A DNA stretch of 52,601 bases from a phage, in the NCBI GenBank assembly GCA_026686805.1, contig GCA_026686805.1_3949.1; one strand, written 5' to 3'. Below, one piece after another: positions 2,881 to 25,812 of this stretch (its first letter is position 1; each line of letters begins with the position of its first letter). Position numbers and translations under genes: made by a program. The notes beneath the pieces were generated by a model. The model made no database searches, had not been told where the DNA came from, and worked only from the letters and a program-made list of their open reading frames with translations.

Positions 2881-2911
2881 TAAAAATTAAAAAGCCCCCG
2901 ATTAAGGAGGC
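2881..2911 (-). terminator. putative intrinsic terminator ending the leftward gene block
   Basis: imperfect hairpin gccccc/ggaggc followed on the minus strand by a T-rich run (A-run 2881-2893 on plus). Confidence 0.3.
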
Positions 2912-2923
2912 TCTTAAGATATT

Positions 2924-3472
2924 TTAAATCAGTGTTTCCAGAACTGTTTTTAGGGATGACTTAGTTGTCTGATAAAAATGAGTGAATCCATTGTTGTTAT
3001 CGAATATCTGCATCATGATATCATCTCCCTTGATTGGGTACACTCGGATATCATAGTGAAAACCATTAAAGACACAAGAACCACTACAGAATGAACTAAA
3101 ATCGTCTACTGAGATGTACTCTTCATGTCCTGTGATTTTTATACAAATACCTTTACTCGGTCTCTTAGGGTTGATATCTTCCATCACAGACATACTCTGT
3201 CCACCAAGAGATACCATAGTGACCACTTTACGGTTCTTCTGTCTAAAGTACATCTTAACTTTCTGCAAAGTGTCTTCATAGAACGGATAAGACCTTTCTA
3301 CAAAGATTCCTTCAAGTGGCTCTTTACCATTTTCAACTTCTCTGTTATGCCGTACTGCAAAGATAATTTGTTCGAACCAGTCAAGATTTTCTTCGGAGAG
3401 TGCTTCCCGAATATCACCCCAATCAAGGACTAGGTAGTTACCTTCAACATCTTTTAAGTTATCTTTTTCCAT
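2924..3472 (-). CDS. hypothetical protein
   Basis: track ORF 2924..3517 begins with TTG and overlaps the upstream gene; internal ATG at 3472 has a GGTGTGA RBS-like sequence and removes the overlap, so the start is uncertain. Confidence 0.45.
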   Translation of the reverse strand: MEKDNLKDVEGNYLVLDWGDIREALSEENLDWFEQIIFAVRHNREVENGKEPLEGIFVERSYPFYEDTLQKVKMYFRQKNRKVVTMVSLGGQSMSVMEDINPKRPSKGICIKITGHEEYISVDDFSSFCSGSCVFNGFHYDIRVYPIKGDDIMMQIFDNNNGFTHFYQTTKSSLKTVLETLI

Positions 3473-3950: not shown

Positions 3951-4362
3951 AAGCTCTCCGAATAACTCTATTAAACATCTCTAAAGTCAGCTTTCCAGAT
4001 TCTAAATGTGGCATAACAAGCTTTAAAGCTTTTTCAACATCATGCACAATATCAATTATACCTTCTTCATAGGCTTCTACGAGGATATCTTTTACACTGA
4101 TATAGCCTTCATTGATAATGATTTGCATATCAAAATCTTCTGATTGCTTGTTTAACTTACCTCTCCAATACCCATCAGCATTAAAAGATATCACTTCACA
4201 CTCTTTAAAATCCATATCATCTGCATGGAATGGAGTAATTATTGTGCATTGGATTGGGTACTCTACACCAGTGGTGTCAACATCAAAGACCTTCACAGAA
4301 GTAAGTGGTTTCTTTGTTTTAGAGCAGTAAACTGTCAATCTTTTACCAATAAGCTCTTTCAT
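3940..4362 (-). CDS. hypothetical protein (140 aa)
   Basis: ORF from track. Confidence 0.5.
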   Translation of the reverse strand: MKELIGKRLTVYCSKTKKPLTSVKVFDVDTTGVEYPIQCTIITPFHADDMDFKECEVISFNADGYWRGKLNKQSEDFDMQIIINEGYISVKDILVEAYEEGIIDIVHDVEKALKLVMPHLESGKLTLEMFNRVIRRAYEN

Positions 4363-4414
4363 TTCGCTACCTTCTAAGTTTCTACAAAGGGGCTATCAAG
4401 TAACCCCTAAGTTA

Positions 4415-4639
4415 TTACTCAGACTTTTCAGTCTTCTTATCGGATTTCTTACTAGTCTTCTTCTCAGCTTTCTGTTCAGGCTCCTTCTCAGAAGTTGCCT
4501 TAATAACCATATCAAGAAGCTCTGATAAGTCACTCTTCAGCAAAGTAACAGGCTGCTCGTTGTAGAAGTTTTTGTCAAGATAAACTTTGAACTCTTCTAT
4601 AGAAGGAAATCCAAAAATTGGTACAGGTGTCTTAATCAT
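4415..4639 (-). CDS. hypothetical protein (74 aa), Lys-rich C-terminus
   Basis: ORF from track. Confidence 0.4.
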   Translation of the reverse strand: MIKTPVPIFGFPSIEEFKVYLDKNFYNEQPVTLLKSDLSELLDMVIKATSEKEPEQKAEKKTSKKSDKKTEKSE

Positions 4640-4715
4640 TGTTTAGTCTCTCCATAGGCATCTTTTAAGATTGCCTTGTTAATCATTTCAGCGATTGCAA
4701 AACGAACACATACAG

Positions 4716-5219
4716 CTATAATTGTAGGTTGCATTCTTTACTTACCTCTTCAAGTTTAACTTCAGAGTCCTTAAGTCGTTTCTTATGAACTCTGAATCTT
4801 AGTAGTGAGATTATGATACCAGCTAAAGGAACAGCATACAAGTACCAAACATCATATATCTTTGCAGTAATCTGTGTAATAGTCAAGTCTTGAGCTATGT
4901 AGCTGATTGCTGATACGGCTAGTAATGTTGCTAAGAAGAAAACCAGTATCATAGCAATATTCAGACAACCTCTGGCATGGTATTCATGCTTAATGCACTT
5001 ATTCTTCTCTTCAACAACACTGTTGTAGTCATTTGTAAAGTCTCTGTAGAAAGCTTTCAAGTATTCTTGAGTGTAGCCTTCAAAGCAACCTGTACCATAC
5101 CAATAATCACCACCAAAATGCGCTATGATACCGGTATCCCCATTTGGTTTGGTTACTCTCAAAGAGGTGTGATGACGAGTATCTTGATAGTCTATTTTGT
5201 ATCTTTCTTCATAAATCAT
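4716..5219 (-). CDS. hypothetical membrane protein (167 aa)
   Basis: ORF from track; long hydrophobic stretch (IAMILVFFLATLLAVSAISYIAQ...AVPLAGIIISLL). Confidence 0.5.
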   Translation of the reverse strand: MIYEERYKIDYQDTRHHTSLRVTKPNGDTGIIAHFGGDYWYGTGCFEGYTQEYLKAFYRDFTNDYNSVVEEKNKCIKHEYHARGCLNIAMILVFFLATLLAVSAISYIAQDLTITQITAKIYDVWYLYAVPLAGIIISLLRFRVHKKRLKDSEVKLEEVSKECNLQL

Positions 5220-10995: not shown

Positions 10996-12411
10996 ATGAG
11001 CGAATTATTTAAACATGCGCACCTTCATGCAGGTCGAACTGAAAATGGTGCTGTAAACCATACTTCATCAATGTCTGCTCTTGTAGACTTTTACAAAGCT
11101 GCTGGTTCAAGCCGTAGCAACGTAGAAATCTTACCAGACCTGTTCTACAAAGCTTTGCGTGAGGATGTTGATGTTGTAGTTCGTATTTTGCTTCATATGC
11201 GAGATGTACGAGAAGGTATGGGTGAGCGTAAAGCCTTCAGAACTGTTTTACTTCAAGCGATTGAAGACAAAGTTTTAGAGCCTACGCAGGTTCTTCGCAT
11301 TATGGATAAGATTGCAGAACTTGGTCGTTTTGATGACTTCAAAATCTTCGTAGGTACTCGTTTCGAGACAGATGCCTTCAAACATCTAGAAGCAGCATTA
11401 CTAGACCCTGCAACAGCAGGTTTGGCGGCTAAGTGGTTACCACGAGTCAAACCACGTCATAAGCAGTTTGTAAAACGTTTCTGCAAGTTTGCCAACTTGA
11501 GTGAGAAAGAGTACCGCACACTGTTGTCTGCACTATCTGATACAGTTGAGCAAAAAATCTCTGCTAATGAGTTTGGTAAGATTGACTACAGTAAGATTCC
11601 TTCACTTGCTGCTGCACGTTACCAAAAACTGTTTAACCGCAAAGATGGAGAACGCTACAAAGCTTACATCGAGTCCTTATCAAAGGGTGAGGCTAAGATT
11701 AATGCTGGTGCTGTTTACCCATACGATGTAATTAAATCTGTTAAGCATGGTAATGCAGATGTTGCTAATGAGCAGTGGAAAGCACTACCAAACTGGATGG
11801 CAGAGGGTGAAAACATCTTGTGTATGTCTGATGTTTCAAGCTCAATGTCTTGGGTGAATTTTGGTTCAATTACTGCTCTTGATATTGGTGTTTCACTTGC
11901 ATTGTATGTAGCAGAACGTAATACAGGTTGCTTTAAGAATGAGTTGATGGTTTATTCAACAAACCCTCACTTCATCGAACTGAGTGGTGATTTACGAAAC
12001 CGTCATCGTCAGGTGATGCGACACGTTGAATATGGCTCAACTAACTTACAAGCAGCTTTTGACCGTATTCTTGAAACAGGTAAAAGAAACAACTTGACTC
12101 AGAAAGATATGCCAAGTAAGCTTATCATCTTCTCCGATATGGAGTTCAATCAGGTTGATGGAGCTAACGGTCGTACAAACTTTGAAGCAATTCGTAGTAA
12201 GTACAAAAAAGCTGGATACGAAATGCCTCAACTGGTATTCTGGTACTTAGCAAACCGTAATGGTACTTGCGAAGTGTCTGTTAAGGATAACGGTGTAGCA
12301 ATGGTATCTGGTTTTTCTCCAGCTACTTTAAAAGCTCTGCTTGGTGGTGAGAAGTTTGACCCAATCAGTGTAATGCTCAAAGCAGTAATGATTGACCGTT
12401 ATATCTGGTAA
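10996..12411 (+). CDS. von Willebrand factor A (vWA) domain protein with MIDAS motif, N-terminal helical domain
   Basis: DxSxS MIDAS-like motif (MSDVSSSMS) followed by hydrophobic strand ...LIIFSDMEFNQ; 471 aa; RBS present. Confidence 0.55.
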   Translation: MSELFKHAHLHAGRTENGAVNHTSSMSALVDFYKAAGSSRSNVEILPDLFYKALREDVDVVVRILLHMRDVREGMGERKAFRTVLLQAIEDKVLEPTQVLRIMDKIAELGRFDDFKIFVGTRFETDAFKHLEAALLDPATAGLAAKWLPRVKPRHKQFVKRFCKFANLSEKEYRTLLSALSDTVEQKISANEFGKIDYSKIPSLAAARYQKLFNRKDGERYKAYIESLSKGEAKINAGAVYPYDVIKSVKHGNADVANEQWKALPNWMAEGENILCMSDVSSSMSWVNFGSITALDIGVSLALYVAERNTGCFKNELMVYSTNPHFIELSGDLRNRHRQVMRHVEYGSTNLQAAFDRILETGKRNNLTQKDMPSKLIIFSDMEFNQVDGANGRTNFEAIRSKYKKAGYEMPQLVFWYLANRNGTCEVSVKDNGVAMVSGFSPATLKALLGGEKFDPISVMLKAVMIDRYIW

Positions 12412-12420
12412 AAAGTTTTA

Positions 12421-12457
12421 AAAAGGGTATTGACAATGTGTTTGATACCCTTTAATA
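12421..12457 (+). promoter_or_regulatory. sigma70-like promoter TTGACA-17-TAATAT embedded in a perfect 9-bp inverted repeat, upstream of the tRNA array
   Basis: -35 ttgaca 12429-12434, 17-nt spacer, -10 taatat 12452-12457; inverted repeat aaagggtat(12421-12429)/atacccttt(12444-12452). Confidence 0.45.
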
Positions 12458-12576
12458 TGTTCTACATAGAAACGAAACGAGAGCTTTTCTAAGATACTGA
12501 AAAATATTTTAAAAAAGTTCTTGACAACCACTAAAAAATAATGTTAAAGTGGTTACATAGAGTTTGAAAAGTTTAT

Positions 12577-12653
12577 CTCTGTTTAGCTCAGCTTGGTAGA
12601 GCGTTCCGTTTGGGGCGGTAAGGCCGGAGGTTCAAGTCCTCCAACAGAGACCA
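12577..12653 (+). tRNA. tRNA-Pro (anticodon TGG)
   Basis: hand-folded cloverleaf: acceptor ctctgtt/aacagag, D-arm gctcagcttggtagagc, anticodon loop ttTGGgg, T-loop ttcaagt, CCA encoded. Confidence 0.65.
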
Positions 12654-12660
12654 AATTAAT

Positions 12661-12738
12661 GTTCCAGTAGACAAAATGGTAAAGTCACCACTCTTTCAAA
12701 GTGGATATCTGAGGGTTCAAATCCCTTCTGGAACGCCA
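12661..12738 (+). tRNA. tRNA-Glu (anticodon TTC)
   Basis: acceptor gttccag/ctggaac, anticodon stem ccact/agtgg, loop ctTTCaa, T-loop ttcaaat, CCA encoded. Confidence 0.75.
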
Positions 12739-12745
12739 GTTTTGA

Positions 12746-12817
12746 CAGAAGACCAATTACAGCAAACTTAATCTACTCATCTGACACGAAATCGGACAAA
12801 GAAGATATTTGGTCTGG
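12746..12817 (+). repeat. bipartite spacer element copy a (CAGAAGACC-nnWTWCAGCAA ... GGTCTGG)
   Basis: seen directly; 5' block 12746-12765, 3' block 12811-12817; agacc/ggtct can pair. Confidence 0.5.
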
Positions 12818-12828
12818 TCATTGAGAAT

Positions 12829-12905
12829 TGCGGGTATAGAGAAAGGGCGTCTCACATGTCTCATTAGCATGGTATCGGCAGGTTCGACTCCTGCACCCGC
12901 CTCCA
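12829..12905 (+). tRNA. tRNA with CAT anticodon (Met or Ile-lysidine type)
   Basis: anticodon stem catgt/gcatg, loop ctCATta, T-arm gcagg-ttcgact-cctgc, CCA encoded; acceptor has a mismatch at one end so boundaries +/-1. Confidence 0.6.
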
Positions 12906-12911
12906 ATTTTG

Positions 12912-12971
12912 CAGAAGACCGTATTCAGCAACAAAATACTTTTTGCGGATAAAAGAAAAAACACGGTCTGG
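12912..12971 (+). repeat. bipartite spacer element copy b
   Basis: gcagaagaccgtattcagcaa ... acacggtctgg. Confidence 0.5.
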
Positions 12972-12982
12972 CAATGTATTAA

Positions 12983-13059
12983 GGTTAGGAAGCACATAAG
13001 GTATGTGCGGTCGCCTGTTAAGCGAATGGCACAGGGTTCGAATCCCTGACTAACCGCCA
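12983..13059 (+). tRNA. tRNA-Asn (anticodon GTT)
   Basis: acceptor ggttagg/actaacc, D-stem gcac/gtgc, anticodon loop ctGTTaa, T-arm caggg-ttcgaat-ccctg, CCA encoded. Confidence 0.7.
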
Positions 13060-13067
13060 AATTAAAT

Positions 13068-13155
13068 GTGTCGTTATCCCGTAGATGGTAGCGGTGGGGA
13101 CTGTAAATCCCTTGTCATTGAGACTCGGTAGGTTCGACTCCTACACGGCACACCA
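13068..13155 (+). tRNA. tRNA-Tyr (anticodon GTA), long variable arm
   Basis: acceptor gtgtcgt/acggcac, anticodon stem gggga/tccct, loop ctGTAaa, long variable arm, T-arm gtagg-ttcgact-cctac, CCA. Confidence 0.7.
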
Positions 13156-13160
13156 ATAAA

Positions 13161-13237
13161 GGCTATGTAGTTTAACTGGAGAAAATACTCCCCTGTCACG
13201 GGAGATGATGTGAGTTCAAGTCTCATCGTAGCCGCCA
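13161..13237 (+). tRNA. tRNA-Asp (anticodon GTC)
   Basis: acceptor ggctatg/cgtagcc, anticodon stem ctccc/gggag, loop ctGTCac, T-loop ttcaagt, CCA. Confidence 0.75.
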
Positions 13238-13298
13238 ATTTTGAGAGGGCTATTTAGCCCCTCCCTTAAAGAGTTCTTACGAGTATTCTTTAAAGGAG

Positions 13299-13372
13299 CA
13301 GAAGACCAAATACAGCAAGAATGTATGAAATTTCAAGCCAATTTAATTTTGAAAATTTAAAACTTGGTCTGG
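13299..13372 (+). repeat. bipartite spacer element copy c
   Basis: agcagaagaccaaatacagcaa ... aacttggtctgg. Confidence 0.5.
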
Positions 13373-13385
13373 CTCAACAAATTTA

Positions 13386-13517
13386 CAGAAGACCGTTTAC
13401 AGCAAAACTTAAACAATCTATTTCTCCGGTAAAGAAAAGGCGAAGGTTCGATTCCTTCACTCGGCAGATGTCGAGTTGGTGTAATGGTAGCACTTAAGAT
13501 GATAAACAACGGTCTGG
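13386..13517 (+). repeat. bipartite spacer element copy d, enclosing a tRNA-like relic
   Basis: acagaagaccgtttacagcaa ... aacaacggtctgg; interior holds T-arm/acceptor-like and acceptor/D-arm-like segments. Confidence 0.5.
13442..13495 (+). other. tRNA-like relic in reversed half order (T-arm + 3' acceptor strand immediately followed by complementary 5' acceptor strand + D-arm)
   Basis: gaagg-ttcgatt-ccttc + actcggc then gtcgagt + ggtgtaatggtagcac; no complete cloverleaf can be drawn. Confidence 0.35.
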
Positions 13518-13666
13518 TAATTATCTTTGTAGATAAGTTATTAAGCTTACCTGTGAGTATGCGACCACAAAGGGTGAAAGGGTAAATTCTAGATTTAAAC
13601 CCAACAAGGCACATCGCTACAGACCTTAAGCAAGTCTGGGTAGCTTATCTACAAAGGTAATTTAAT

Positions 13667-13742
13667 GGAAGTGTAGCAGAATGGTGATGCGGCAGACTTT
13701 TAATCTGACAGGCGATGGGTTCGAATCCCTCCACTTCTACCA
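13667..13742 (+). tRNA. tRNA-Lys (anticodon TTT)
   Basis: acceptor ggaagtg/cacttct, anticodon loop ctTTTaa, T-loop ttcgaat, CCA; T-stem weak in my fold. Confidence 0.6.
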
Positions 13743-13746
13743 AAAT

Positions 13747-13823
13747 GGTTCAGTCGCAGATAAGGTAATGCAAGGGTCTCATAAGCCCTATGAATGTGGG
13801 TTCAATTCCCATCTGAACCTCCA
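13747..13823 (+). tRNA. tRNA with CAT anticodon (Met, initiator or Ile-lysidine type)
   Basis: acceptor ggttcag/ctgaacc, anticodon stem agggt/gccct, loop ctCATaa, T-loop ttcaatt, CCA. Confidence 0.7.
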
Positions 13824-13831
13824 ATTTATCG

Positions 13832-14326
13832 GTGATACTTATGATTTGTGCTAACAAAGATTGCGGAAATGAAGCCGTTAAAGGTGGAAAATTTTGCTCA
13901 CGCTCTTGTTCTGCAAAAGTGAACAACAAGAAACACCCAAAGAGAAGTCAGGAAGGCTCTTGCCATTCATGCGGAAAGGTAACGCCAAAAGCAAGAAAAT
14001 ACTGTGACGAATGTATTTCAGGTGGAGTCATGAAAAAACATAAGACCCATCATGAAAAAAGCAAAGCTAAATCACTGCACGTTAAAAAGTCTCGTGATAG
14101 ACTGAAGAAGGCTTTAGTTGATTACAAGGGTGGTTGTTGTTCAATTTGTGGTTACAATAGGTGCATAAAGGCTCTAGAGTTTCACCACTTAGACCCTAAC
14201 ACAAAAGACTTCACAGTAGGTCAAAAACACTACTCACTGGCTACAATGCAGTCTGAAGTTGATAAGTGTGTCTTGCTTTGTGCAAATTGCCATAGAGAAG
14301 TACACGAAGGGGTAACAATGCTGTGA
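13832..14326 (+). CDS. HNH homing endonuclease (Cys-rich N-terminus, C-terminal HNH motif)
   Basis: C-terminal ...CSICGYNRC...LEFHHLDPNTKDF...CVLLCANCHREVHEG = HNH signature; embedded in tRNA array; stop codon overlaps start of tRNA-Ile. Confidence 0.75.
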   Translation: MILMICANKDCGNEAVKGGKFCSRSCSAKVNNKKHPKRSQEGSCHSCGKVTPKARKYCDECISGGVMKKHKTHHEKSKAKSLHVKKSRDRLKKALVDYKGGCCSICGYNRCIKALEFHHLDPNTKDFTVGQKHYSLATMQSEVDKCVLLCANCHREVHEGVTML

Positions 14327-14395
14327 AAGCACATATGGATGTGCATTCGGCTGATAACCGAAAGGTAGAAGGTTCGAATCCTTCTCACAGTACCA
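14320..14395 (+). tRNA. tRNA-Ile (anticodon GAT)
   Basis: acceptor gctgtga/tcacagt, D-stem gcac/gtgc, anticodon stem ttcgg/ccgaa, loop ctGATaa, T-arm gaagg-ttcgaat-ccttc, CCA. Confidence 0.75.
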
Positions 14396-14410
14396 ATTTC
14401 AATAAAGTTG

Positions 14411-14439
14411 TTGACATTGAGATGCGACTACTTTATAGT
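14411..14439 (+). promoter_or_regulatory. sigma70-like promoter TTGACA-17-TATAGT inside the tRNA array
   Basis: -35 ttgaca 14411-14416, 17-nt spacer, -10 tatagt 14434-14439. Confidence 0.5.
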
Positions 14440-14445
14440 AACCTT

Positions 14446-14610
14446 AGTTTTCGTTGCGTAGCGTCTATTTTGCAAATTTAAAATAAATGCAAACGACAAT
14501 GTTTTTCTGGCAGTAGCTTGATAGGCTAAACACCAGTGAGGTCTTCCAATCCCTCATCAAAGAATTTGGCGTACTAGCCCACGGTATGATTAATAAGGTG
14601 GGCATCTTTA
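14446..14610 (+). ncRNA. candidate small structured RNA downstream of promoter (no coding potential, no tRNA fold)
   Basis: hairpins tttgca/tgcaaa and gcccac(14577-14582)/gtgggc(14598-14603) followed by atcttt; purely structural inference. Confidence 0.2.
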
Positions 14611-14643
14611 AGGGCTTTCTAAGAGAGTCTTTAAAGATAATTA

Positions 14644-14725
14644 CGGGGCGTATCTCAGCGGTCTTCTAAACCGCCGTTAACCGAGTAAGTGGAGTATGCG
14701 GGTTCGAGTCCTGCCGCCTCGACCA
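14644..14725 (+). tRNA. atypical tRNA-like gene, possible tRNA-Arg (anticodon TCT); D-arm not placeable, 23-nt region between anticodon and T arms
   Basis: acceptor cggggcg/cgcctcg, perfect anticodon arm gcggt-ctTCTaa-accgc, T-arm gcggg-ttcgagt-cctgc, CCA; geometry non-canonical. Confidence 0.35.
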
Positions 14726-14868
14726 ATTTAGTTAGCAGATTACTTAGACGACCTTATCGGGTCTCCGTGTAAGGAGGTGGTCTGTATCTCATGTTTTCCA
14801 GAACATGTAAATAATCTGAGAAGGGGCTTTACAGTGTTGAGATAATACGGTAAGCTTCGAATTATAGT

Positions 14869-14951
14869 ATGGGACGATGTTAAGACTCTAAGGCATGAGC
14901 AACGGCTTCCAACACCGTTTCAAAGGGGTTCAACTCCTCCGTCCCATGCCA
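14869..14951 (+). tRNA. atypical tRNA-like gene, possible tRNA-Trp (anticodon CCA); 7 extra nt between acceptor and D-arm
   Basis: acceptor atgggac/gtcccat (7/7), anticodon arm acggc-ttCCAac-accgt, T-loop ttcaact, CCA. Confidence 0.35.
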
Positions 14952-14964
14952 AAGTCTTATTAGG

Positions 14965-15052
14965 GGTAGGTAGCGGCTAATGGTAGCCAAACTGTCTTGA
15001 AAACAGTTGCCACTGTAGAGATACGGTGAGGGTTCGACTCCTTTACTTACCG
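14965..15052 (+). tRNA. tRNA-Ser (anticodon TGA), long variable arm
   Basis: acceptor ggtaggt/acttacc, perfect anticodon stem actgt/acagt, loop ctTGAaa, 20-nt variable arm, T-arm gaggg-ttcgact-ccttt; CCA not encoded. Confidence 0.7.
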
Positions 15053-15310
15053 CCTAATAAGATTTTAAAGCCAAGCTTCATTCGGATGTTGCTTTGGTAT
15101 CCCTCGTGTATTGTCGTACACACTGATAAAACACCTAGTAGGTGTCACGGAGAAGAGATAATATCAAGCTCTCCAAAGGTTCTAGTCACCGGATTAAACA
15201 AGACTATGCAAAGACCTTTTTAGGTCTTTTTAGAGGGCTTCTAAGGTTATTACGGCTTGTTGTGGAACCTTGTTGCTTAGGTTCTTAGAAGTTCTCTAAA
15301 AAGATTTAAT

Positions 15311-15388
15311 GGGAGATTGACGGTAATTGGTAAACCTATCTCGCTTAGAACGAGATGTTTGAGGGTTCGAATCCCTTGTCTCCTACCA
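15311..15388 (+). tRNA. tRNA with TAG anticodon (Leu by anticodon), short variable loop
   Basis: acceptor gggagat/gtctcct, perfect anticodon stem tctcg/cgaga, loop ctTAGaa, T-loop ttcgaat, CCA; class I architecture unusual for Leu. Confidence 0.55.
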
Positions 15389-15395
15389 AATTAAT

Positions 15396-15471
15396 GCAGG
15401 TGTAGCAAAATGGTTATGCGGCTGACTCTTAATCAGTAAGACGATGGGTTCAATTCCCTCCACCTGTACCA
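15396..15471 (+). tRNA. tRNA-Lys (anticodon CTT)
   Basis: acceptor gcaggtg/cacctgt, anticodon stem gctga/tcagt, loop ctCTTaa, T-loop ttcaatt, CCA. Confidence 0.65.
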
Positions 15472-15476
15472 AAAAT

Positions 15477-15552
15477 GGGGTCATAGTTTATATGGTTAAA
15501 ATTCGAGTTTTGCAAACTTGGGAACTGAGTTCAATTCTCAGTGACTCCACCA
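15477..15552 (+). tRNA. tRNA-Ala (anticodon TGC)
   Basis: acceptor ggggtca/tgactcc, anticodon stem cgagt/acttg, loop ttTGCaa, T-loop ttcaatt, CCA. Confidence 0.65.
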
Positions 15553-15558
15553 ATTAGT

Positions 15559-15633
15559 GCATCCATAGTTTAAACGGGAAAATTACAGTCTTCCAAACTG
15601 AGGTTGAGGGTTCGATTCCCTCTGGATGCTCCA
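15559..15633 (+). tRNA. tRNA-Gly (anticodon TCC)
   Basis: acceptor gcatcca/tggatgc, anticodon loop ctTCCaa, T-arm gaggg-ttcgatt-ccctc, CCA. Confidence 0.7.
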
Positions 15634-15640
15634 AATTAAT

Positions 15641-15716
15641 GCTCCTATCGTATAATTGGCTATTACGGTTGCCTTGTAAGCAACTTATCAGGGTTCGAAT
15701 CCTTGTGGGAGCACCA
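15641..15716 (+). tRNA. tRNA-Thr (anticodon TGT)
   Basis: acceptor gctccta/tgggagc, perfect anticodon stem gttgc/gcaac, loop ctTGTaa, T-loop ttcgaat, CCA. Confidence 0.75.
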
Positions 15717-15718
15717 AT

Positions 15719-15811
15719 TCAGAGGTCAAGTGAAAGACCGCTGGTGTCAACTGAAGACCGTAACAAATTCCACGGAGTTGAGTTAGCGGCACAACTTCAG
15801 ACCTCTTTCAC
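15719..15811 (+). other. structured spacer element (inverted repeat agaggtc ... gacctct, internal gaagaccgtaacaaattc block)
   Basis: seen directly; related to the CAGAAGACC-containing spacer elements; function unknown. Confidence 0.3.
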
Positions 15812-15886
15812 ACTCGCTTAGTTTATATGGTAAAACATCACCCTTACAAGATGAAGAAAAAGGTTCAAGTCCTTTAGTGAGTACCA
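15812..15886 (+). tRNA. tRNA-Val (anticodon TAC)
   Basis: acceptor actcgct/agtgagt, anticodon stem tcacc/gatga (one mismatch), loop ctTACaa, T-arm aaagg-ttcaagt-ccttt, CCA. Confidence 0.65.
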
Positions 15887-15887
15887 T

Positions 15888-15965
15888 GTTCCAGTATCCC
15901 AATTGGCAGAGGATGCAAGCTCAAACCTTGTATTAGTGACGGTTCGAATCCGTCTTGGAACACCA
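15888..15965 (+). tRNA. tRNA with CAA anticodon (Leu by anticodon), short variable loop
   Basis: acceptor gttccag/ttggaac, anticodon stem gcaag/cttgt, loop ctCAAac, T-arm gacgg-ttcgaat-ccgtc, CCA. Confidence 0.55.
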
Positions 15966-15981
15966 ATTTTAGGAGAACACT

Positions 15982-16089
15982 ATGAGCAATAAGTCAATTG
16001 CAAAAAAGTTTAGAGCGTCATACCTAAACAGACGTAAAAACAAAGTTTGTGAAAAACTGTATGGTGTTCTCGTAGGTAAGCAGGATTAG
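15982..16089 (+). CDS. possible small ORF (35 aa, basic) overlapping the 5' end of tRNA-Arg
   Basis: AGGAG RBS 6 nt upstream of ATG; below the track's 60-aa cutoff; overlap with tRNA makes it doubtful. Confidence 0.2.
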   Translation: MSNKSIAKKFRASYLNRRKNKVCEKLYGVLVGKQD

Positions 16090-16155
16090 TTCAAATGGAT
16101 AGAGCAACAGTCTACGAAGCTGTTAATAGGGGTTCGAATCCCTTATCCTGCACCA
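16080..16155 (+). tRNA. tRNA-Arg (anticodon ACG)
   Basis: acceptor gcaggat/atcctgc, D-arm gttcaaatggatagagc, anticodon stem acagt/gctgt, loop ctACGaa, T-loop ttcgaat, CCA. Confidence 0.75.
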
Positions 16156-16174
16156 ATTTAAAGAGGCTATTTAG

Positions 16175-16732
16175 ATGAGATATTTGAAGTATGCTTCATG
16201 GATTTTCTTAGCTTTGTTAGAGCCATTTGCAGCAATCTTAGCAGTTATCTTAGCACCTTTTGTAGTTCCATTCTACAGTGAGAAGAAAGGACACTTACCT
16301 TTCGGGTTCAGATGGATGGAGACATATGACAACCCAATTGATGGTGATGAAGGTCACGTTAAAAGATGGGCTAATATCAGATGGATTGGTAAACTAGGTG
16401 TCTACATGCAAAGAGTCGGATGGCTCTGGAGAAACAAAGCTTATAACTTCTCTTACCATGTATTAGGAAGAGATGTAAAAGATGTTACTAAGTGGAAAGG
16501 TAATATCAACGTAAGTTCTGACCCTGAAGATAATCAGACAGGTTATCTACTAATGTGGAACAGTAATGCTTGGGGATTATTCGCTTTTATCCCATCAATT
16601 AAAATCTTTGGTAAACAATTTTACTGGAGAATTTATATTGGATGGAAACTAAAAAGTGTTGTCCCAGAAGAAAGAGCATTCTCAAGGGAAAGAGTTATGT
16701 TGGCATTCTTTATTCATCCACTGAGAAAGTAA
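16175..16732 (+). CDS. hypothetical protein with hydrophobic N-terminus (185 aa), embedded in tRNA array
   Basis: ORF from track; N-terminal hydrophobic segment WIFLALLEPFAAILAVILAPFVVPF. Confidence 0.5.
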   Translation: MRYLKYASWIFLALLEPFAAILAVILAPFVVPFYSEKKGHLPFGFRWMETYDNPIDGDEGHVKRWANIRWIGKLGVYMQRVGWLWRNKAYNFSYHVLGRDVKDVTKWKGNINVSSDPEDNQTGYLLMWNSNAWGLFAFIPSIKIFGKQFYWRIYIGWKLKSVVPEERAFSRERVMLAFFIHPLRK

Positions 16733-16740
16733 AGATTTAA

Positions 16741-16816
16741 AGGGGATTAGTTTACAAGGTTAAAACCTCGGTCTTTGAAATCGAAGAAGTTGGTTCAATT
16801 CCAACATCCCCCGCCA
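16741..16816 (+). tRNA. tRNA-Gln (anticodon TTG)
   Basis: acceptor aggggat/atccccc (1-72 mismatch), anticodon stem tcggt/atcga, loop ctTTGaa, T-arm gttgg-ttcaatt-ccaac, CCA. Confidence 0.65.
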
Positions 16817-16818
16817 AT

Positions 16819-16897
16819 GCTCCATTACTCCAATTGGCAGAGAGGCCAGACTTAAAATCTGTGTTATGTATCGGTTCGAATCCGATATGGAGTACCA
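16819..16897 (+). tRNA. tRNA with TAA anticodon (Leu by anticodon), short variable loop
   Basis: acceptor gctccat/atggagt, anticodon stem caga/tctg, loop ctTAAaa, T-arm atcgg-ttcgaat-ccgat, CCA. Confidence 0.5.
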
Positions 16898-16902
16898 AAT
16901 TT

Positions 16903-16978
16903 AGCGGCATAGCATAACTGGCAATGCAGCAGTCTCTGAAGCTGTCTTATTAAGGTTCAAATCCTTATGCCGCTGCCA
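16903..16978 (+). tRNA. tRNA-Gln (anticodon CTG)
   Basis: acceptor agcggca/tgccgct, D-stem gcat/atgc, anticodon loop ctCTGaa (stem with two G-U pairs), T-arm taagg-ttcaaat-cctta, CCA. Confidence 0.55.
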
Positions 16979-17009
16979 CTTCTAAGGATTCTTACGAGAG
17001 TCCTTAAAT

Positions 17010-17085
17010 GTGGCCTTATCATAAACGGTAATGACCCATGCTGTGAACATGGTCTATACGGGTTCAAATCCCGTAGGTCACCCCA
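17010..17085 (+). tRNA. tRNA-His (anticodon GTG)
   Basis: acceptor gtggcct/aggtcac, perfect anticodon stem ccatg/catgg, loop ctGTGaa, T-arm acggg-ttcaaat-cccgt, CCA. Confidence 0.7.
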
Positions 17086-17091
17086 ATTTAT

Positions 17092-17167
17092 AGTCCAAGT
17101 AGCTTATATGGTTAAAGCGCGTGTCTGAAAAACATGAGAAGAGTGTTCAAATCCCACTGGACTACCA
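17092..17167 (+). tRNA. tRNA-Phe (anticodon GAA)
   Basis: acceptor (t)agtcca/tggact(a), anticodon stem cgtgt/acatg, loop ctGAAaa, T-loop ttcaaat; 5' boundary +/-1. Confidence 0.6.
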
Positions 17168-17183
17168 ATTTCAAAGGTGCTTA

Positions 17184-17918
17184 ATGAAAGAGATGACAGA
17201 ACAAGGTAAGGAGATTTTCAATCTCTTAAAAACCGGTAAAGGGTTTTCTAACCCCCTTATTACTGGTGCAGCAGTTCTCGGTGGAACCGTAGCTGCCTCT
17301 ACATCACTTGTAAGCTCTATTAGCTCTGTATCAGACCCTACAGTAAAGGATAAGCTTGTTGCTGCTGGACTTACAACAGTTCTGCTTAACAGCTTTACCA
17401 CGAGTCTGACAAGCACTACATCAACTACCAAAACACTAACAGATTACGGTCAAAAATCCATTGATGAGTTTTCATCACGTATGCAGGTAGCAAAAGGTTA
17501 TTCTAATGTTATGGGTGCAGCAGGTGAACAAGTTGGCTGTACACCATTTAGTGGTATTATGGGTGTTGCTACAGAGTATGGTCAAAAAGCTATTGATACG
17601 ATTAACAGTGCACTAGATAGTGTTAATGGTGTGTTAAGTGACTTACAAGATGCTATTGACAAAGGTCTTGATACTATTTCTGATTTAGCTGAGCAAGCTG
17701 TTAGTAAGATTAATGAAGGTATTTCAAAAATTACAGCTTATGCAGATGAAGTTGTGCAGATGATTGAAGAAGAAGCTGCTCTTATTGCAGAGTACCTTAA
17801 AACGAATATCAATGGGTTCTTAGCAGGTATCTTACCAGACTGGTTTGATGATGCTTGTAAAACTGGTGTAATTGACACTATTGCAACACCAGAAATGAAG
17901 AACGCATTACAGAAATAA
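17184..17918 (+). CDS. hypothetical Ser/Thr-rich protein (244 aa), embedded in tRNA array
   Basis: track ORF 17121..17918 overlaps tRNA-Phe; ATG at 17184 has RBS aaaggtg and clears the tRNA. Confidence 0.5.
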   Translation: MKEMTEQGKEIFNLLKTGKGFSNPLITGAAVLGGTVAASTSLVSSISSVSDPTVKDKLVAAGLTTVLLNSFTTSLTSTTSTTKTLTDYGQKSIDEFSSRMQVAKGYSNVMGAAGEQVGCTPFSGIMGVATEYGQKAIDTINSALDSVNGVLSDLQDAIDKGLDTISDLAEQAVSKINEGISKITAYADEVVQMIEEEAALIAEYLKTNINGFLAGILPDWFDDACKTGVIDTIATPEMKNALQK

Positions 17919-17920
17919 AT

Positions 17921-18013
17921 GGAAGATTAACCCTAAAAGGTAAGGGAGCAGTTTGCTAAACTGCCAGTAGCTGAGAAATCGGTGTACCAGTTCAAGTCTG
18001 GTATCTTCCTCCA
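17921..18013 (+). tRNA. tRNA-Ser (anticodon GCT), long variable arm
   Basis: acceptor ggaagat/atcttcc, perfect anticodon stem gcagt/actgc, loop ttGCTaa, ~21-nt variable arm, T-arm accag-ttcaagt-ctggt, CCA. Confidence 0.75.
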
Positions 18014-18017
18014 ATTT

Positions 18018-18093
18018 GAATCCGTGACAGAAATGGCTATGTGCCTGTCTGCAAAACAGGTTTATAAGGGTTCGAGTCCCTTCGGATTCTCCA
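18018..18093 (+). tRNA. tRNA-Cys (anticodon GCA)
   Basis: acceptor gaatccg/cggattc, perfect anticodon stem cctgt/acagg, loop ctGCAaa, T-arm aaggg-ttcgagt-ccctt, CCA. Confidence 0.75.
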
Positions 18094-18255
18094 ATTTATT
18101 TTACTCTCTCTCAATTAAAATAATAATAATGCCCTGCTATAAGTATTCTTCCTTTCGCTACCGAAGAGTATTTTTAGACAGGGCTTTTTTACAGAGTTAT
18201 ACTTTATAAGAAGCCTTATACAGTATGTCTCTGACGTACATTGTGGTTTCTCCTT

Positions 18256-18279
18256 GACGGTCTCTGTACCGTCTTTTTT
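18256..18279 (+). terminator. intrinsic terminator after tRNA array
   Basis: hairpin gacggt-ctctgt-accgtc followed by T6; a second, looser hairpin (gccctg ... cagggc + T6, 18131-18190) lies upstream. Confidence 0.5.
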
Positions 18280-18315
18280 AAGGGGAAACATGATTAACTA
18301 TTTGGAGAAAACATA

Positions 18316-18516: not shown

Positions 18517-18537
18517 TTCTATTTGCGGAGGTGCTTA

Positions 18538-20139
18538 ATGGACTTAAATGCTGTTAAGCAGAAGCGAGTGGAAGATGTTAGGAAAGTCCTAGCTGGAGAG
18601 TTGGGGCTTTCTGATGAAGTAAAAGAAATTATCAAATCATTCGGTAAAGACCCCTCTAAATTCCTTCCAACTCAAATTCTGACTTTATTAAGATACACAC
18701 CAGACCAAGTTAGACTTATCTTCAAATTGATGACTGATAAGAATTATGTAGCCCCTCAGCCGGGTTCTCAAGAGGTCTTTTTAAATACTAATGCTGACTT
18801 GGTTCTCTATGGTGGTGCTGCTGGTGCTGGTAAAACTGCTGCATTGTTAATGGATTCTTTAAGGTTTATTGAAGACCCTAACTATAATGCTGTATATTTC
18901 CGTCGAAATACAACACAGCTACAAGGTGGTTTATGGCCTGCTGCAAAGAAACTATTTGGTAAGTTTGGTGGGGTTCCTCACGAGCAGAAGATGACTATCA
19001 CATTCCCTTCTGGGGCAACTATCAAGTTTACCTATCTAGAACTTGAAAAGCACGCTGAAGGTCATCAGGGTATTGAATACTCAGCTATTTACTTTGACGA
19101 AGGTACACACTTCTCTGCTTCACAGATTTCATACCTACAAACACGTCTGCGTTCTGGTGCTGAAGGTGATTCATACATGAAGATTTCCATGAACCCAGAC
19201 AGAGACCACTTTATTTATGATTGGGTAGAACCATTCTTAGATGAAGAAGGTTATCCAGACCCTGAAAAGTGTGGTCGTATTCGTTGGTATGTAATGAATG
19301 ACGGTGTGATGGTTTCTGATTGGGAGAGAGACAAGATTCTTGAAATGTTCCCTCTTGAGATTCCTCAAACATACACCTTTATCTCTGGTACGATTGATGA
19401 TAACCCAATCCTTGACTTCTTAGAGCCTAAGTACCGTGGTAAGTTGGAAAACAACACCCCTGTAAACGTTGCAAGACTTCGTTTCGGTAACTGGAAGGCT
19501 CGTGCAGAAGGTTCAAACTATTGGCAAAGACAATGGTGTGAAATTGTTGATTCACTCCCAGAAGATGTATTCGATGTTAGAGCATGGGACTTAGCAGCAA
19601 CTTTACCATCTGAGATTAACCCTAATCCAGACTGGACAGCAGGTGTTAAGATGGGTAAATCTAAAAAAGACGGTTGCTATTATATCATTGATGTAGTAAG
19701 ATTTAGAGATAGACCCTCTGGAGTCGAAACACAAATTAATTTGACTGCTGAAAGTGACGGTAAGCGAACTGGTATTTTTATCCCTCAAGACCCAGGCGCT
19801 GCTGGTAAATCCTACGCGACATCCCTCATCAGGAAACTTGCCGAGAAAGGCTATCGTGCAAGAGCTAAACCAACAAATAAAGATAAAGTTACCCGCTTTG
19901 CGGGATTTTCTGCTGCTTCTGAAGCTGGACTTGTAAAAGTCTTAAGAGGTAGTTGGAATGAAGCTTACTTTCAAGAGCTTGAAGGCTTTTGTGGTGATGG
20001 CAAAACTAAAGATGACCAAGTGGATGCTACCAGTGATGCTTTCAACAGTCTTAACGAAGTTAAATTATTCAAGCCACCATCAATGGGTGCTCACACAGAC
20101 TTAGTGAGAGGAAACCCATATGAGGGGCTTAGACGTTGA
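18538..20139 (+). CDS. terL: terminase large subunit
   Basis: Walker A P-loop LYGGAAGAGKTAALL near N-terminus; ~530 aa; directly upstream of portal-sized gene; start moved to ATG 18538 (GGAGG RBS) from track ATG 18523. Confidence 0.8.
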   Translation: MDLNAVKQKRVEDVRKVLAGELGLSDEVKEIIKSFGKDPSKFLPTQILTLLRYTPDQVRLIFKLMTDKNYVAPQPGSQEVFLNTNADLVLYGGAAGAGKTAALLMDSLRFIEDPNYNAVYFRRNTTQLQGGLWPAAKKLFGKFGGVPHEQKMTITFPSGATIKFTYLELEKHAEGHQGIEYSAIYFDEGTHFSASQISYLQTRLRSGAEGDSYMKISMNPDRDHFIYDWVEPFLDEEGYPDPEKCGRIRWYVMNDGVMVSDWERDKILEMFPLEIPQTYTFISGTIDDNPILDFLEPKYRGKLENNTPVNVARLRFGNWKARAEGSNYWQRQWCEIVDSLPEDVFDVRAWDLAATLPSEINPNPDWTAGVKMGKSKKDGCYYIIDVVRFRDRPSGVETQINLTAESDGKRTGIFIPQDPGAAGKSYATSLIRKLAEKGYRARAKPTNKDKVTRFAGFSAASEAGLVKVLRGSWNEAYFQELEGFCGDGKTKDDQVDATSDAFNSLNEVKLFKPPSMGAHTDLVRGNPYEGLRR

Positions 20140-24234: not shown

Positions 24235-25341
24235 ATGTTGACTAATTCTGAAAAAAGCAGATTTTTCCTTGCTGACCTGACTGGTGAAGTCCAGTCTATC
24301 CCAAATACTTATGGGTATATTTCCAACTTAGGTCTGTTCCGTTCAGCACCAATCACCCAAACTACTTTCCTTATGGACTTGACTGATTGGGATGTTAGCT
24401 TGCTTGATGCGGTAGACCGTGATAGCCGTAAAGCAGAGACTAGCGCACCTGAGCGTGTTCGTCAAATCAGCTTCCCAATGATGTACTTCAAAGAAGTTGA
24501 AAGCATTACTCCTGATGAAATTCAGGGTGTACGTCAGCCAGGCACTGCAAACGAACTGACTACTGAAGCTGTAGTACGTGCTAAGAAGCTGATGAAGATT
24601 CGTACCAAGTTCGATATTACTCGTGAGTTCCTGTTTATGCAAGCTCTGAAGGGTAAAGTTGTTGATGCTCGTGGTACTCTGTATGCTGACCTGTACAAGC
24701 AGTTCGACGTTGAGAAGAAGACTGTTTACTTCGACCTTGACAACCCTAATGCTGACATCGACGCTTCTATTGAAGAACTGCGTATGCACATGGAAGACGA
24801 AGCTAAGACTGGCACTGTAATCAACGGTGAAGAAATTCACGTAGTTGTTGACCGCTTATTCTTCAGCAAACTGGTTAAGCATCCTAAGATTCGTGACGCT
24901 TATCTTGCACAACAGACTCCACTGGCTTGGCAACAGATTACTGGTTCTCTGAGAACTGGTGGCACTGACGGCGTTCAGGCTCACATGAACACTTTCTACT
25001 ACGGTGGTGTTAAGTTTGTCCAGTACAACGGTAAGTTCAAAGACAAGCGTGGTAAGGTTCACACTCTGGTGAGCATTGATAGCGTAGCGGCAACTGTTGG
25101 TGTCGGTCATGCTTTCCCTAACGTTTCTATGCTGGGCGAAGCAAACAACATCTTCGAAGTGGCATATGGTCCATGTCCTAAGATGGGTTATGCCAATACA
25201 CTTGGTCAGGAACTGTACGTATTCGAATACGAAAAAGACCGTGACGAAGGTATTGACTTTGAAGCTCACTCTTACATGCTGCCATACTGCACACGTCCTC
25301 AGTTGTTGGTAGACGTTCGTTCTGACGCTAAACCAGACTAA
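24235..25341 (+). CDS. major capsid protein (putative)
   Basis: 368-aa ORF following protease/scaffold gene with strong RBS region; assignment by synteny. Confidence 0.55.
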   Translation: MLTNSEKSRFFLADLTGEVQSIPNTYGYISNLGLFRSAPITQTTFLMDLTDWDVSLLDAVDRDSRKAETSAPERVRQISFPMMYFKEVESITPDEIQGVRQPGTANELTTEAVVRAKKLMKIRTKFDITREFLFMQALKGKVVDARGTLYADLYKQFDVEKKTVYFDLDNPNADIDASIEELRMHMEDEAKTGTVINGEEIHVVVDRLFFSKLVKHPKIRDAYLAQQTPLAWQQITGSLRTGGTDGVQAHMNTFYYGGVKFVQYNGKFKDKRGKVHTLVSIDSVAATVGVGHAFPNVSMLGEANNIFEVAYGPCPKMGYANTLGQELYVFEYEKDRDEGIDFEAHSYMLPYCTRPQLLVDVRSDAKPD

Positions 25342-25362
25342 TATTCTTAAGGAGGGTTATGA

Positions 25363-25812
25363 ATGTGTTATACAGGCGACCCAGCCAATAACCCTCTTGA
25401 TAGAGTAAGAATCCTCTGCACAGACACCAATAATGATGAAATTCTTATTGAACAGTCTGTGCTAGAGTGGTTCTATCTAGAATCTGGAAAGGATGAAAAG
25501 AAAGCAGCCATCAAAGCTCTTAAATATTTACTCTTTCAAGTAGCCAAGATGGGAGATGAGAAGGTTGGTGGTGTTTATTTACGTAACTCTTCCAGATTCA
25601 AATCTCTGAAAGCTGTTTATGACGACCTTGTTAAAAGCTCTGTTTCAGGACTACCCTATGCAGGTGGTATTAATCAGTGTGATATTGATATGCGTCGTCA
25701 GAATCCTTGCTCTGTCAAGAAATACACAGAATATGGTGATGCTGCCAGATACGAAGGCAGAGATTACTGCAACCGTGTTAATGGCGTATTTATTATCGAG
25801 CGAGATGAATAA
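25363..25812 (+). CDS. hypothetical protein (head-tail joining region)
   Basis: ORF with AGGAGGG RBS. Confidence 0.5.
   Translation: MCYTGDPANNPLDRVRILCTDTNNDEILIEQSVLEWFYLESGKDEKKAAIKALKYLLFQVAKMGDEKVGGVYLRNSSRFKSLKAVYDDLVKSSVSGLPYAGGINQCDIDMRRQNPCSVKKYTEYGDAARYEGRDYCNRVNGVFIIERDE

Follow-up and report, generated by a model that had tools for sequence, protein, structure and literature searches.

The tRNA array of the window, the 52,601-nt stretch of phage DNA analysed here, carries an HNH endonuclease gene between tRNA-Met(cat) and tRNA-Ile(gat). In this study, we compared this locus with those of related phages that lack the gene. The best explanation, to which we assign a probability of about 0.8, is a free-standing HNH homing-endonuclease gene that was inserted precisely into the 2-nt tRNA-Met/tRNA-Ile spacer, that would spread by homing and whose expression would be controlled by tRNA processing. 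The features of the locus are listed in Table 1.

Table 1. Features at and around the HNH gene (positions in the window).
Feature	Position	Strand	Details
Truncated tRNA relic	13409..13459	+	22 bits
tRNA-Met(cat), left flank of insert	13747..13823	+	ARAGORN; Rfam 55.6 bits; alignment with empty alleles
494-bp insert, present or absent among Felixounaviruses	13826..14319	+	Alignment with empty alleles
Shine-Dalgarno-like GGTGAT	13831..13836	+	4 nt 5' of ATG; read from sequence
HNH endonuclease CDS	13841..14326	+	161 aa plus TGA; ortholog of Felix O1 ORF44 / Felix01p085
N-terminal region with two CxxC/Cx4C...CxxC zinc-ribbon-like motifs	13841..14020	+	C3, C8, C19, C23; C41, C44, C55, C58
HNH (His-Me finger) nuclease core, residues ~95-157	14123..14311	+	C100-x2-C103, H115-H116, C147-x2-C150-H151, H155
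tRNA-Ile(gat), right flank of insert	14320..14395	+	ARAGORN; Rfam 60 bits
Putative sigma-70-like promoter TTGACA-17-TATAGT, 11/12	14411..14439	+	Directly after tRNA-Ile
tRNA-like element	14644-14722		Replaces relatives' tRNA-Arg(tct)

The window belongs to a Felix O1-like myovirus (Felixounavirus). ARAGORN predicted 25 tRNA genes on the same strand from 12577 to 18093, and the tRNA region at 12500-18200 was 98.4% identical to that of Escherichia phage garuso and 96.1% identical to that of Salmonella phage Felix O1. The HNH protein is orthologous to the Felix O1 protein annotated as 'HNH endonuclease' (NP_944863.2), with 160 of 161 residues identical. In the Felix O1 record (NC_005282), the CDS at 25030-25515 and tRNA-Ile at 25509-25584 are annotated at the same site and with the same 7-nt overlap. 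Copies of ORF44 were also present in garuso, L27, Sl26, Henu11 and others. The gene itself differs in nothing material from that of Felix O1; what differs is that the window joins the array to a wV8-like structural module.

We determined the insertion site by aligning the array with those of relatives without the gene. In all eight aligned empty alleles, tRNA-Met and tRNA-Ile were intact and 2 nt apart, the 3' CCA of tRNA-Met ending 2 nt 5' of tRNA-Ile. In skuden, warpig and SME50, tRNA-Met ends in ...GAACCTCCAAT and is directly followed by GCTGTGAAAGC... of tRNA-Ile. The sequence of the filled allele is ...CCTCCAAT/TTATCGGTGATACTTATG...GAAGGGGTAA/CAATGCTGTGA, and the empty sites of pSJ21 and phiWec172 were identical to its flanks. 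The distance between the two anchors was 523-524 nt in the 10 HNH+ loci in which both anchors were found, versus 30 nt in 8 HNH- loci. The junctions were clean, the insertion was intergenic, and neither tRNA gene was altered by it in comparison with the empty alleles. The insert boundary is ambiguous by 4 nt, as CAAT occurs at 13822-13825 and again at 14316-14319. Thus, the proposal in the initial annotation of a free-standing gene inserted beside a tRNA, with endonuclease-free alleles in relatives, was supported by the alignment of empty and filled alleles, and the array comparison suggested there located the insertion site in the 2-nt tRNA-Met/tRNA-Ile spacer. An intron or intein was rejected, since the insert lies between two intact tRNA genes and Rfam gave no intron family match in 12400-18300.

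The insert contains a Shine-Dalgarno sequence and the HNH ORF, and it has no in-frame stop of its own. The terminal codons ATG-CTG-TGA (14318-14326) are made of the pre-existing spacer and positions 1-7 of tRNA-Ile. The ORF overlaps tRNA-Ile(gat) by 7 nt, as the initial annotation had noted from the two coordinates, and the sequence, the ORF list and ARAGORN agreed on these bounds. Its TGA (14324-14326) occupies tRNA positions 5-7 within the acceptor stem. The tRNA folds into a perfect cloverleaf (z = -3.4), and its 7-bp acceptor stem includes GCUGUGA with the UGA. At the 5' end, the ORF can begin at GTG 13832 or ATG 13841. Of the two, ATG 13841 is most likely the true start, because it is conserved in every ortholog, has GGTGAT upstream and is the annotated start in Felix O1, garuso and Sl26. 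The GTG was absent from Henu11 and KEP3. In the alignment, GGTGAT was kept in all HNH+ alleles, Henu11 included. This sequence is complementary to the 3' end of 16S rRNA, AUCACC.

The encoded protein was then compared with known nuclease families. The best match in PHROGs was phrog_2255 'HNH endonuclease' (E = 4e-37). When the window protein was aligned with six homologs of 32-41% identity, all from unrelated phages, C100, C103, H115, H116, C147, C150, H151 and H155 were invariant across the seven sequences, as were C44, C55 and C58 of the zinc-ribbon-like region. The profile of this alignment matched the HNH (En) domain of LtrA with E = 7e-4, and the CxxC, HH and CxxCH motifs were aligned. 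LtrA and the AI2M-like HNH family PF21368, which are group II intron-encoded, are the closest solved or curated relatives of the nuclease core, and LtrA and the window protein share the CxxC...HH...CxxCH zinc-stabilised His-Me finger. The similarity of the window protein to LtrA is weak and lies beneath the Pfam cutoff: PF21368 scored 15.0 bits against a cutoff of 23 (E = 0.023). In LtrA, the HNH domain is appended to a reverse transcriptase/maturase, whereas the window protein is a small stand-alone HNH protein with zinc ribbons and no intron. PF01844 (10.2 bits, cutoff 21.4) and a double-zinc-ribbon family (E = 0.015) were also below their cutoffs, NCBIfam gave no relevant match to the window protein above its curated cutoffs, and a single-sequence AlphaFold2 model of the 161-aa protein was unusable (pLDDT 44.6, pTM 0.25). 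These results indicate that the protein is a predicted HNH / His-Me finger nuclease that has the catalytic and structural-zinc residues, and its N-terminal ~60 residues are presumed to be a DNA-binding module. Together, the PHROG match, the invariant motif and the dN/dS given below argue that a chance ORF is ruled out. No paralog of the HNH protein was found in the window. The gene lies 4.2 kb upstream of the terminase ORF (18523-20139); a terminase-associated (packaging) HNH protein was rejected, as the gene sits inside the tRNA array and is absent from ~95% of relatives.

We next examined how the gene is distributed. A nucleotide query with positions 13660-14480 matched 258 phage records, and full-length carriers were defined by a query coverage of at least 80%. 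Full-length copies were found in 11 of the 258, and Henu12 had one further copy interrupted by a contig end. About 246 of the 258 records matched by their flanks alone and were without the HNH gene (~95%), which answers the question, raised in the initial annotation, of whether all relatives carry the gene at the same place. In a protein search, 12 records had at least 80% identity and 403 were below 60%. The carriers occupied at least four local haplotypes. Their backgrounds differed in the presence of two indels, one of 76 bp between tRNA-Lys and tRNA-Met and one of 89 bp after the promoter downstream of tRNA-Ile; the carrier OPT-SAL01 had a divergent left flank in common with the non-carrier pSJ21. 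The gene was found in two genera, Felixounavirus and Mooglevirus (Henu11). The best matches to the 25-kb structural module of the window were wV8 and the O157 typing phages (97.9%), which lack the HNH gene. The closest matches in the HNH region, garuso and Felix O1, were outside the 60 best backbone matches. In the carrier KEP3, the backbone was close (97.3%), whereas the HNH allele had diverged (89.7%). These results show that the distribution of the gene conflicts with the backbone phylogeny, and this fits the prediction for a homing element moving by recombination.

Nine of the 11 copies were intact. Those of MET-P1-301 and OPT-SAL01 lacked one A in an A7 run, which reflects a frameshift or else an error in sequencing the homopolymer. 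Between the window-type and the Henu11/KEP3-type alleles, dS was ~0.6-0.7 and dN/dS was 0.14-0.20. Since dN/dS is this low at a dS of ~0.65, the HNH protein is under purifying selection. Such constraint, together with nine intact and two frameshifted copies, matches the life cycle of a homing gene. A carrier frequency of ~5% is unexpected for efficient drive and counts against the homing explanation. Co-conversion was examined among 11 HNH+ and 8 HNH- sequences, and no flanking column within ±300 nt split the two groups; the flanks are constrained tRNA genes, so that the power of this comparison is low. The same 19 sequences had no protective target polymorphism within ±300 nt. A difference in the tRNA-Ile variable loop (A versus C/T) in the first alignment vanished once more empty alleles were added.

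The same observations bear on three other explanations. The gene could be a domesticated nuclease that is kept for a benefit to the phage, through the exclusion of competitors by cutting of their tRNA arrays, or through recombination and amplification of tRNA genes against tRNA-targeting defences. The purifying selection on the protein, the tie of the HNH clade to tRNA arrays with many isotypes (described below) and the indel mosaics of Felixounavirus arrays are in its favour. A 2026 paper is a further point for it: SegB (T4/T6) homologs are enriched beside tRNAs, with a statistical association, and through their action tRNA and anti-defence genes can undergo segmental amplification (PMC13096335). 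However, ~95% of otherwise near-identical phages manage without the gene, two carriers have frameshifted copies, and no tandem amplification of tRNA genes was seen around the HNH gene in the window. We therefore regard this explanation as unlikely. Domestication and homing are not mutually exclusive.

It is less likely still that the gene is an inactive relic, the decaying remnant of a past invasion that hitch-hikes with no current nuclease activity. The low carrier frequency, the homopolymer frameshift in 2 of 11 copies and the missing co-conversion signal would agree with decay, but the copy in the window is intact and has kept every catalytic and zinc residue, dN/dS is far below 1 at a dS of ~0.65, and the gene occurs in several haplotypes and in both genera. 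Least probable of all is an ancestral gene that was repeatedly and precisely lost by deletion between the two CAAT microhomologies: the 4-bp direct repeat does flank the insert, but CCAAT(T) is the usual trailer of most tRNAs in the array (repeat family D1), so the repeat is expected anyway, the carriers are scattered over different local haplotypes and backbones, and loss would require either that most lineages underwent an identical deletion or that a single old deletion then took on the same mosaic distribution.

The 494-bp cassette supplies a ribosome-binding site and a 161-codon ORF with no stop. Translation continues through the spacer into the first 7 nt of tRNA-Ile and ends at the acceptor-stem UGA. 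According to the homing explanation, in a mixed infection the enzyme would nick or cut the empty tRNA-Met/tRNA-Ile junction, or an adjacent tRNA gene, of an endonuclease-free phage. Recombinational repair, in which the two tRNA genes serve as homology arms, would then copy the cassette in. The carrier would be immune if the junction is what is recognised, as the insert splits that site. A tRNA sequence as the cleavage target, which the initial annotation had suggested, is plausible.

The position of the stop codon was also examined in homologs from other phages. Homologs with 26-55% identity were present in more than 400 phage records, and in five of them the ORF ended inside, or at the 5' end of, a tRNA on the same strand. 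The overlap was 10 nt with tRNA-Lys in the Vequintavirinae phages Erwinia pEp_SNUABM_01 and Salmonella NINP13076, with tRNA-Thr in Pseudomonas KIL1 (Flaumdravirus) and with tRNA-Ala in the T5-like Escherichia phage Elw, and it was 1 nt with tRNA-Asn in Hafnia Zyzzx (Ounavirinae). A profile of the family retrieved 80 loci from IMG/VR, 72 of which had a tRNA within 1.5 kb. After removal of duplicates, 73 distinct loci remained. A tRNA started between -60 and +20 nt from the ORF stop in 34 of these 73, compared with 7.6±2.6 (maximum 19) expected when the ORF end was placed at random within the same loci. The overlap was exactly 10 nt in 16 of the 73 loci, versus 0.1 expected. A 10-nt overlap places the stop at tRNA positions 8-10, where the near-universal U8-A9-G10 reads UAG. 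Most of the overlapping ORFs in the clade (21 of 26) used one reading frame, ending at or near positions 8-10. The partner tRNAs comprised ~15 anticodon species, with tRNA-Asn(gtt) the commonest, and apart from the TAG required by the overlap and features generic to tRNAs, no shared target motif was found in them. These results show that the distant homologs of the window gene in unrelated phages have the same tRNA-adjoining layout.

As the gene lies within a tRNA array, we also considered how it is expressed. Strong promoter-like sites on the + strand near the gene were found at 12430 and 12521, upstream of the array, and directly after tRNA-Ile (Table 1). Since no + strand promoter-like site was found between 12810 and 14411, the HNH gene is most likely co-transcribed with the first tRNA group and would lack its own promoter. 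As for the promoter after tRNA-Ile, all aligned alleles were invariant up to and including its -35 hexamer. If the next tRNA transcription unit begins at this promoter, the first unit would have the HNH gene as its penultimate gene. A cut by RNase P at the 5' end of tRNA-Ile (14319/14320) would split codon 160 and remove the stop, and the resulting non-stop HNH mRNA would keep the level of the endonuclease low. Non-stop mRNA is expected to undergo tmRNA tagging (rescue).

A similar arrangement has been reported for SegB of phage T4, a free-standing homing endonuclease that lies in a tRNA cluster and is missing in close relatives (Brok-Volchanskaya et al. 2008, PMC2330249). The segB ORF extends to the 5' edge of the tRNA that follows, and maturation of tRNA-Arg cuts between its last sense codon and the stop, which was proposed as a negative control of expression (PMC2330249). 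The same report showed that segB is co-transcribed with tRNAs and that SegB cleaves tRNA genes of relatives, with its activity, its target (a T-psi-C motif) and biased inheritance established experimentally. For the window gene, cleavage, target and biased inheritance are predictions from comparison. SegB is a GIY-YIG enzyme and is not homologous to the HNH protein of the window. In addition, segB has a hairpin over its ribosome-binding site, whereas no hairpin sequestering the HNH ribosome-binding site was predicted (z = +1.1).

Control via processing of the primary transcript has also been suggested for the T5 F-Tfl endonucleases (F-TflI/II/IV) (PMC2330249). In the T5 record, we found that hegD overlaps tRNA-Gln2 by 23 nt, hegC overlaps tRNA-Ser2 by 14 nt and T5.069 overlaps tRNA-Asn by 24 nt. 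Like the window gene, hegC and hegD are HNH-type genes in a tRNA array, but they belong to another subfamily (IPR002711, IPR010902). The T5 region had no significant similarity to the window protein, the best tblastn match being hegA with E = 0.048. The stop-in-tRNA layout of the T5 genes and the window gene is thus convergent, because there is no significant homology to hegC, hegD or T5.069. True homologs of the window protein are present in the T5-like phages Elw and S124. The parallel with T4- and T5-type phages drawn in the initial annotation was therefore apt, since in segB and hegC/hegD, too, the gene runs up to or into the 5' end of the tRNA that follows.

The stop-in-tRNA overlap could be a mere by-product of insertion at a tRNA boundary that offers a nearby stop. 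A further idea is that the overlap is a selected governor that couples nuclease dose to tRNA maturation and that evolved independently in SegB, the T5 HNH genes and the zinc-ribbon HNH clade. A related idea is that the clade may recognise generic features of tRNA genes and remodel or amplify arrays. We put the latter two ideas forward tentatively and consider them possible rather than probable.

The surrounding array was searched for traces of rearrangement. The other HNH genes of relatives lie between tRNA-Tyr and tRNA-Asp, downstream of tRNA-Ile, and between tRNA-Gly and tRNA-Thr. The array is thus a mosaic and a hot spot; several indels occur in it, and relatives have HNH genes at no fewer than three further sites. 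A reversed tRNA relic had been described near the gene; the minus strand had no tRNA-like match with E<=1 in 12400-18300 and none with E<=10 in 13230-13670, and the sole relic is in forward orientation (Table 1). A 28-nt spacer repeat family also occurs in the array, as does a 22-nt inverted repeat (13519-13540 / 13641-13662), which proved not to be tRNA-derived. The suggestion that relics and spacer elements are traces of endonuclease-driven rearrangement was not borne out, as nothing links the spacer repeats or relics to the endonuclease.

The gene is an already annotated accessory element of Felix O1, whose genome has six HNH homing-endonuclease-like genes (PMC3185647), and both the element type and the stop-in-tRNA architecture have been published. 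The empty allele, the insertion site and the tRNA overlap are not discussed in the Felix O1 genome paper (PMC3185647) or its annotations. Three refinements were not stated in the literature searched, namely the exact empty site, the low carrier frequency and the stop at tRNA positions 8-10 as a signature of the HNH clade.

The exact empty site, ...GAACCTCCAAT/GCTGTGAAAGC..., is a ready substrate for the biochemistry of this endonuclease. The comparison also shows that Felixounavirus tRNA arrays are hot spots in which HNH genes have inserted at four or more alternative sites, and this explains much of the variation in array length between therapeutic-candidate phages. The association with tRNAs that was quantified for SegB is now extended to a large HNH clade, with the stop at tRNA positions 8-10 as its signature. 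If it is true that tRNA processing limits the expression of the endonuclease, this would explain, as a general rule, how selfish nucleases are made tolerable inside RNA operons.

A second allele of tRNA-Ile(gat), which has more than 20 differences and the 5' end TGTGGGTTAGC, was found at the same position in warpig and VpaE1. Many endonuclease-free phages, in which tRNA-Met and tRNA-Ile lie 2 nt apart, have this divergent allele (roughly 72 of the 258 phage records matching the HNH locus, as estimated from the 90-95% identity band). The relatives carrying the HNH gene all have the other tRNA-Ile(gat) allele, and none has the divergent one. The divergent allele could be a candidate cleavage-resistant variant of the target. 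Two copies of the HNH gene are frameshifted. In MET-P1-301 and OPT-SAL01, a run of six A replaces the run of seven in GAAAAAAGC, at HNH codons 72-74, and the gene is left without annotation in both records. The missing A is explained either by genuine decay of the gene or by an error in sequencing the homopolymer.

We found that other spacers of the same array hold further HNH genes in relatives, none of which is present in the window. At the tRNA-Tyr/tRNA-Asp site, the gene ends 4 nt 5' of tRNA-Asp, and at the tRNA-Gly/tRNA-Thr site it ends 1 nt 5' of tRNA-Thr; another site is the region 3' of tRNA-Ile. The tRNA array is a hot spot for endonuclease genes with multiple sites. The nuclease gene is not the only ORF packed against tRNAs here, since two further protein ORFs, of 265 and 185 aa, are wedged between tRNAs. 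The 265-aa ORF ends 2 nt 5' of tRNA-Ser (17921).

Features of the tRNA array in the window and HNH genes at other sites in relatives (the latter in coordinates of each relative's locus)
Feature	Position	Strand	Remarks
Truncated tRNA relic	13409-13459	+	anticodon arm and T-arm; 22 bits, under threshold
tRNA 5'-half look-alike	13470-13493	+	GTCGAGTTGGTGTAATGGTAGCAC; few nt 3' of the relic
28-nt direct-repeat family	12738-12765, 12904-12931, 13291-13318, 13378-13405		core CAGAAGACC..T.ACAGCAA; spacers of first tRNA group
22-nt inverted repeat	13519-13540 / 13641-13662		91% complementary; brackets 100-nt segment
Predicted sigma-70 promoter	14411-14439	+	near-consensus, TTGACA-17-TATAGT; 16 nt 3' of tRNA-Ile
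tRNA-like element	14644-14722	+	Rfam tRNA 31.7 bits, slightly over gathering score
Conserved ORF, 185 aa	16175-16732	+	flanked by tRNA-Arg (to 16155) and tRNA-Gln (from 16741)
Putative membrane protein ORF, 265 aa	17121-17918	+	starts inside tRNA-Phe (17092-17167)
HNH genes, Felix O1	2882-3274, 4192-4605
HNH gene, pSJ21 and phiWec172	266-699
HNH gene, wV8	4384-4788
HNH genes, warpig and SME50

A normal tRNA-Arg(tct) occupies the position of the tRNA-like element in skuden, VpaE1, MET-P1-301, and Sl26. In the element, a CTTCTAA anticodon loop is retained and the T-arm is good. Its acceptor stem is poor, a normal D-arm is missing, and about 18 nt of additional sequence are present. ARAGORN made no tRNA call for it. 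It may represent a pseudo-tRNA; alternatively, it may encode a stable tRNA-like RNA similar to those in the T5 annotation.

The truncated relic and the 5'-half-like sequence (13409-13500) lie within the conserved stretch of 430 bp that separates tRNA-Asp from tRNA-Lys. They could be two tRNA fragments fused by deletion, or a permuted remnant. Two copies of the 28-nt repeat begin immediately after the terminal CCA of tRNA-Glu and of tRNA-Met, and this family might serve as a signal for processing or regulation. The 22-nt inverted repeat, located just 5' of tRNA-Lys(ttt), is not tRNA-derived; it may be what the initial annotation took for a reversed tRNA relic.

Up to and including the -35 hexamer of the predicted promoter, no variation was observed among all aligned relatives. 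An 89-bp additional segment is present just 3' of this promoter in Felix O1, KEP3, SME50, and NJ12. Henu11, KEP3, and MET-P1-301 have a 76-bp additional segment in the spacer between tRNA-Lys(ttt) and tRNA-Met(cat) (window equivalent 13743-13746). The distribution of the 76-bp segment is independent of both the 89-bp indel and the HNH allele type, which demonstrates recombination on a fine scale inside the array. At a larger scale, the structural module (18500-43400) is wV8-like (97.9%) and the tRNA array (12500-18200) is garuso-like (98.4%); garuso was not found among the best 60 backbone matches to the window. The window is a mosaic of a wV8-like structural module and a garuso-like tRNA array.
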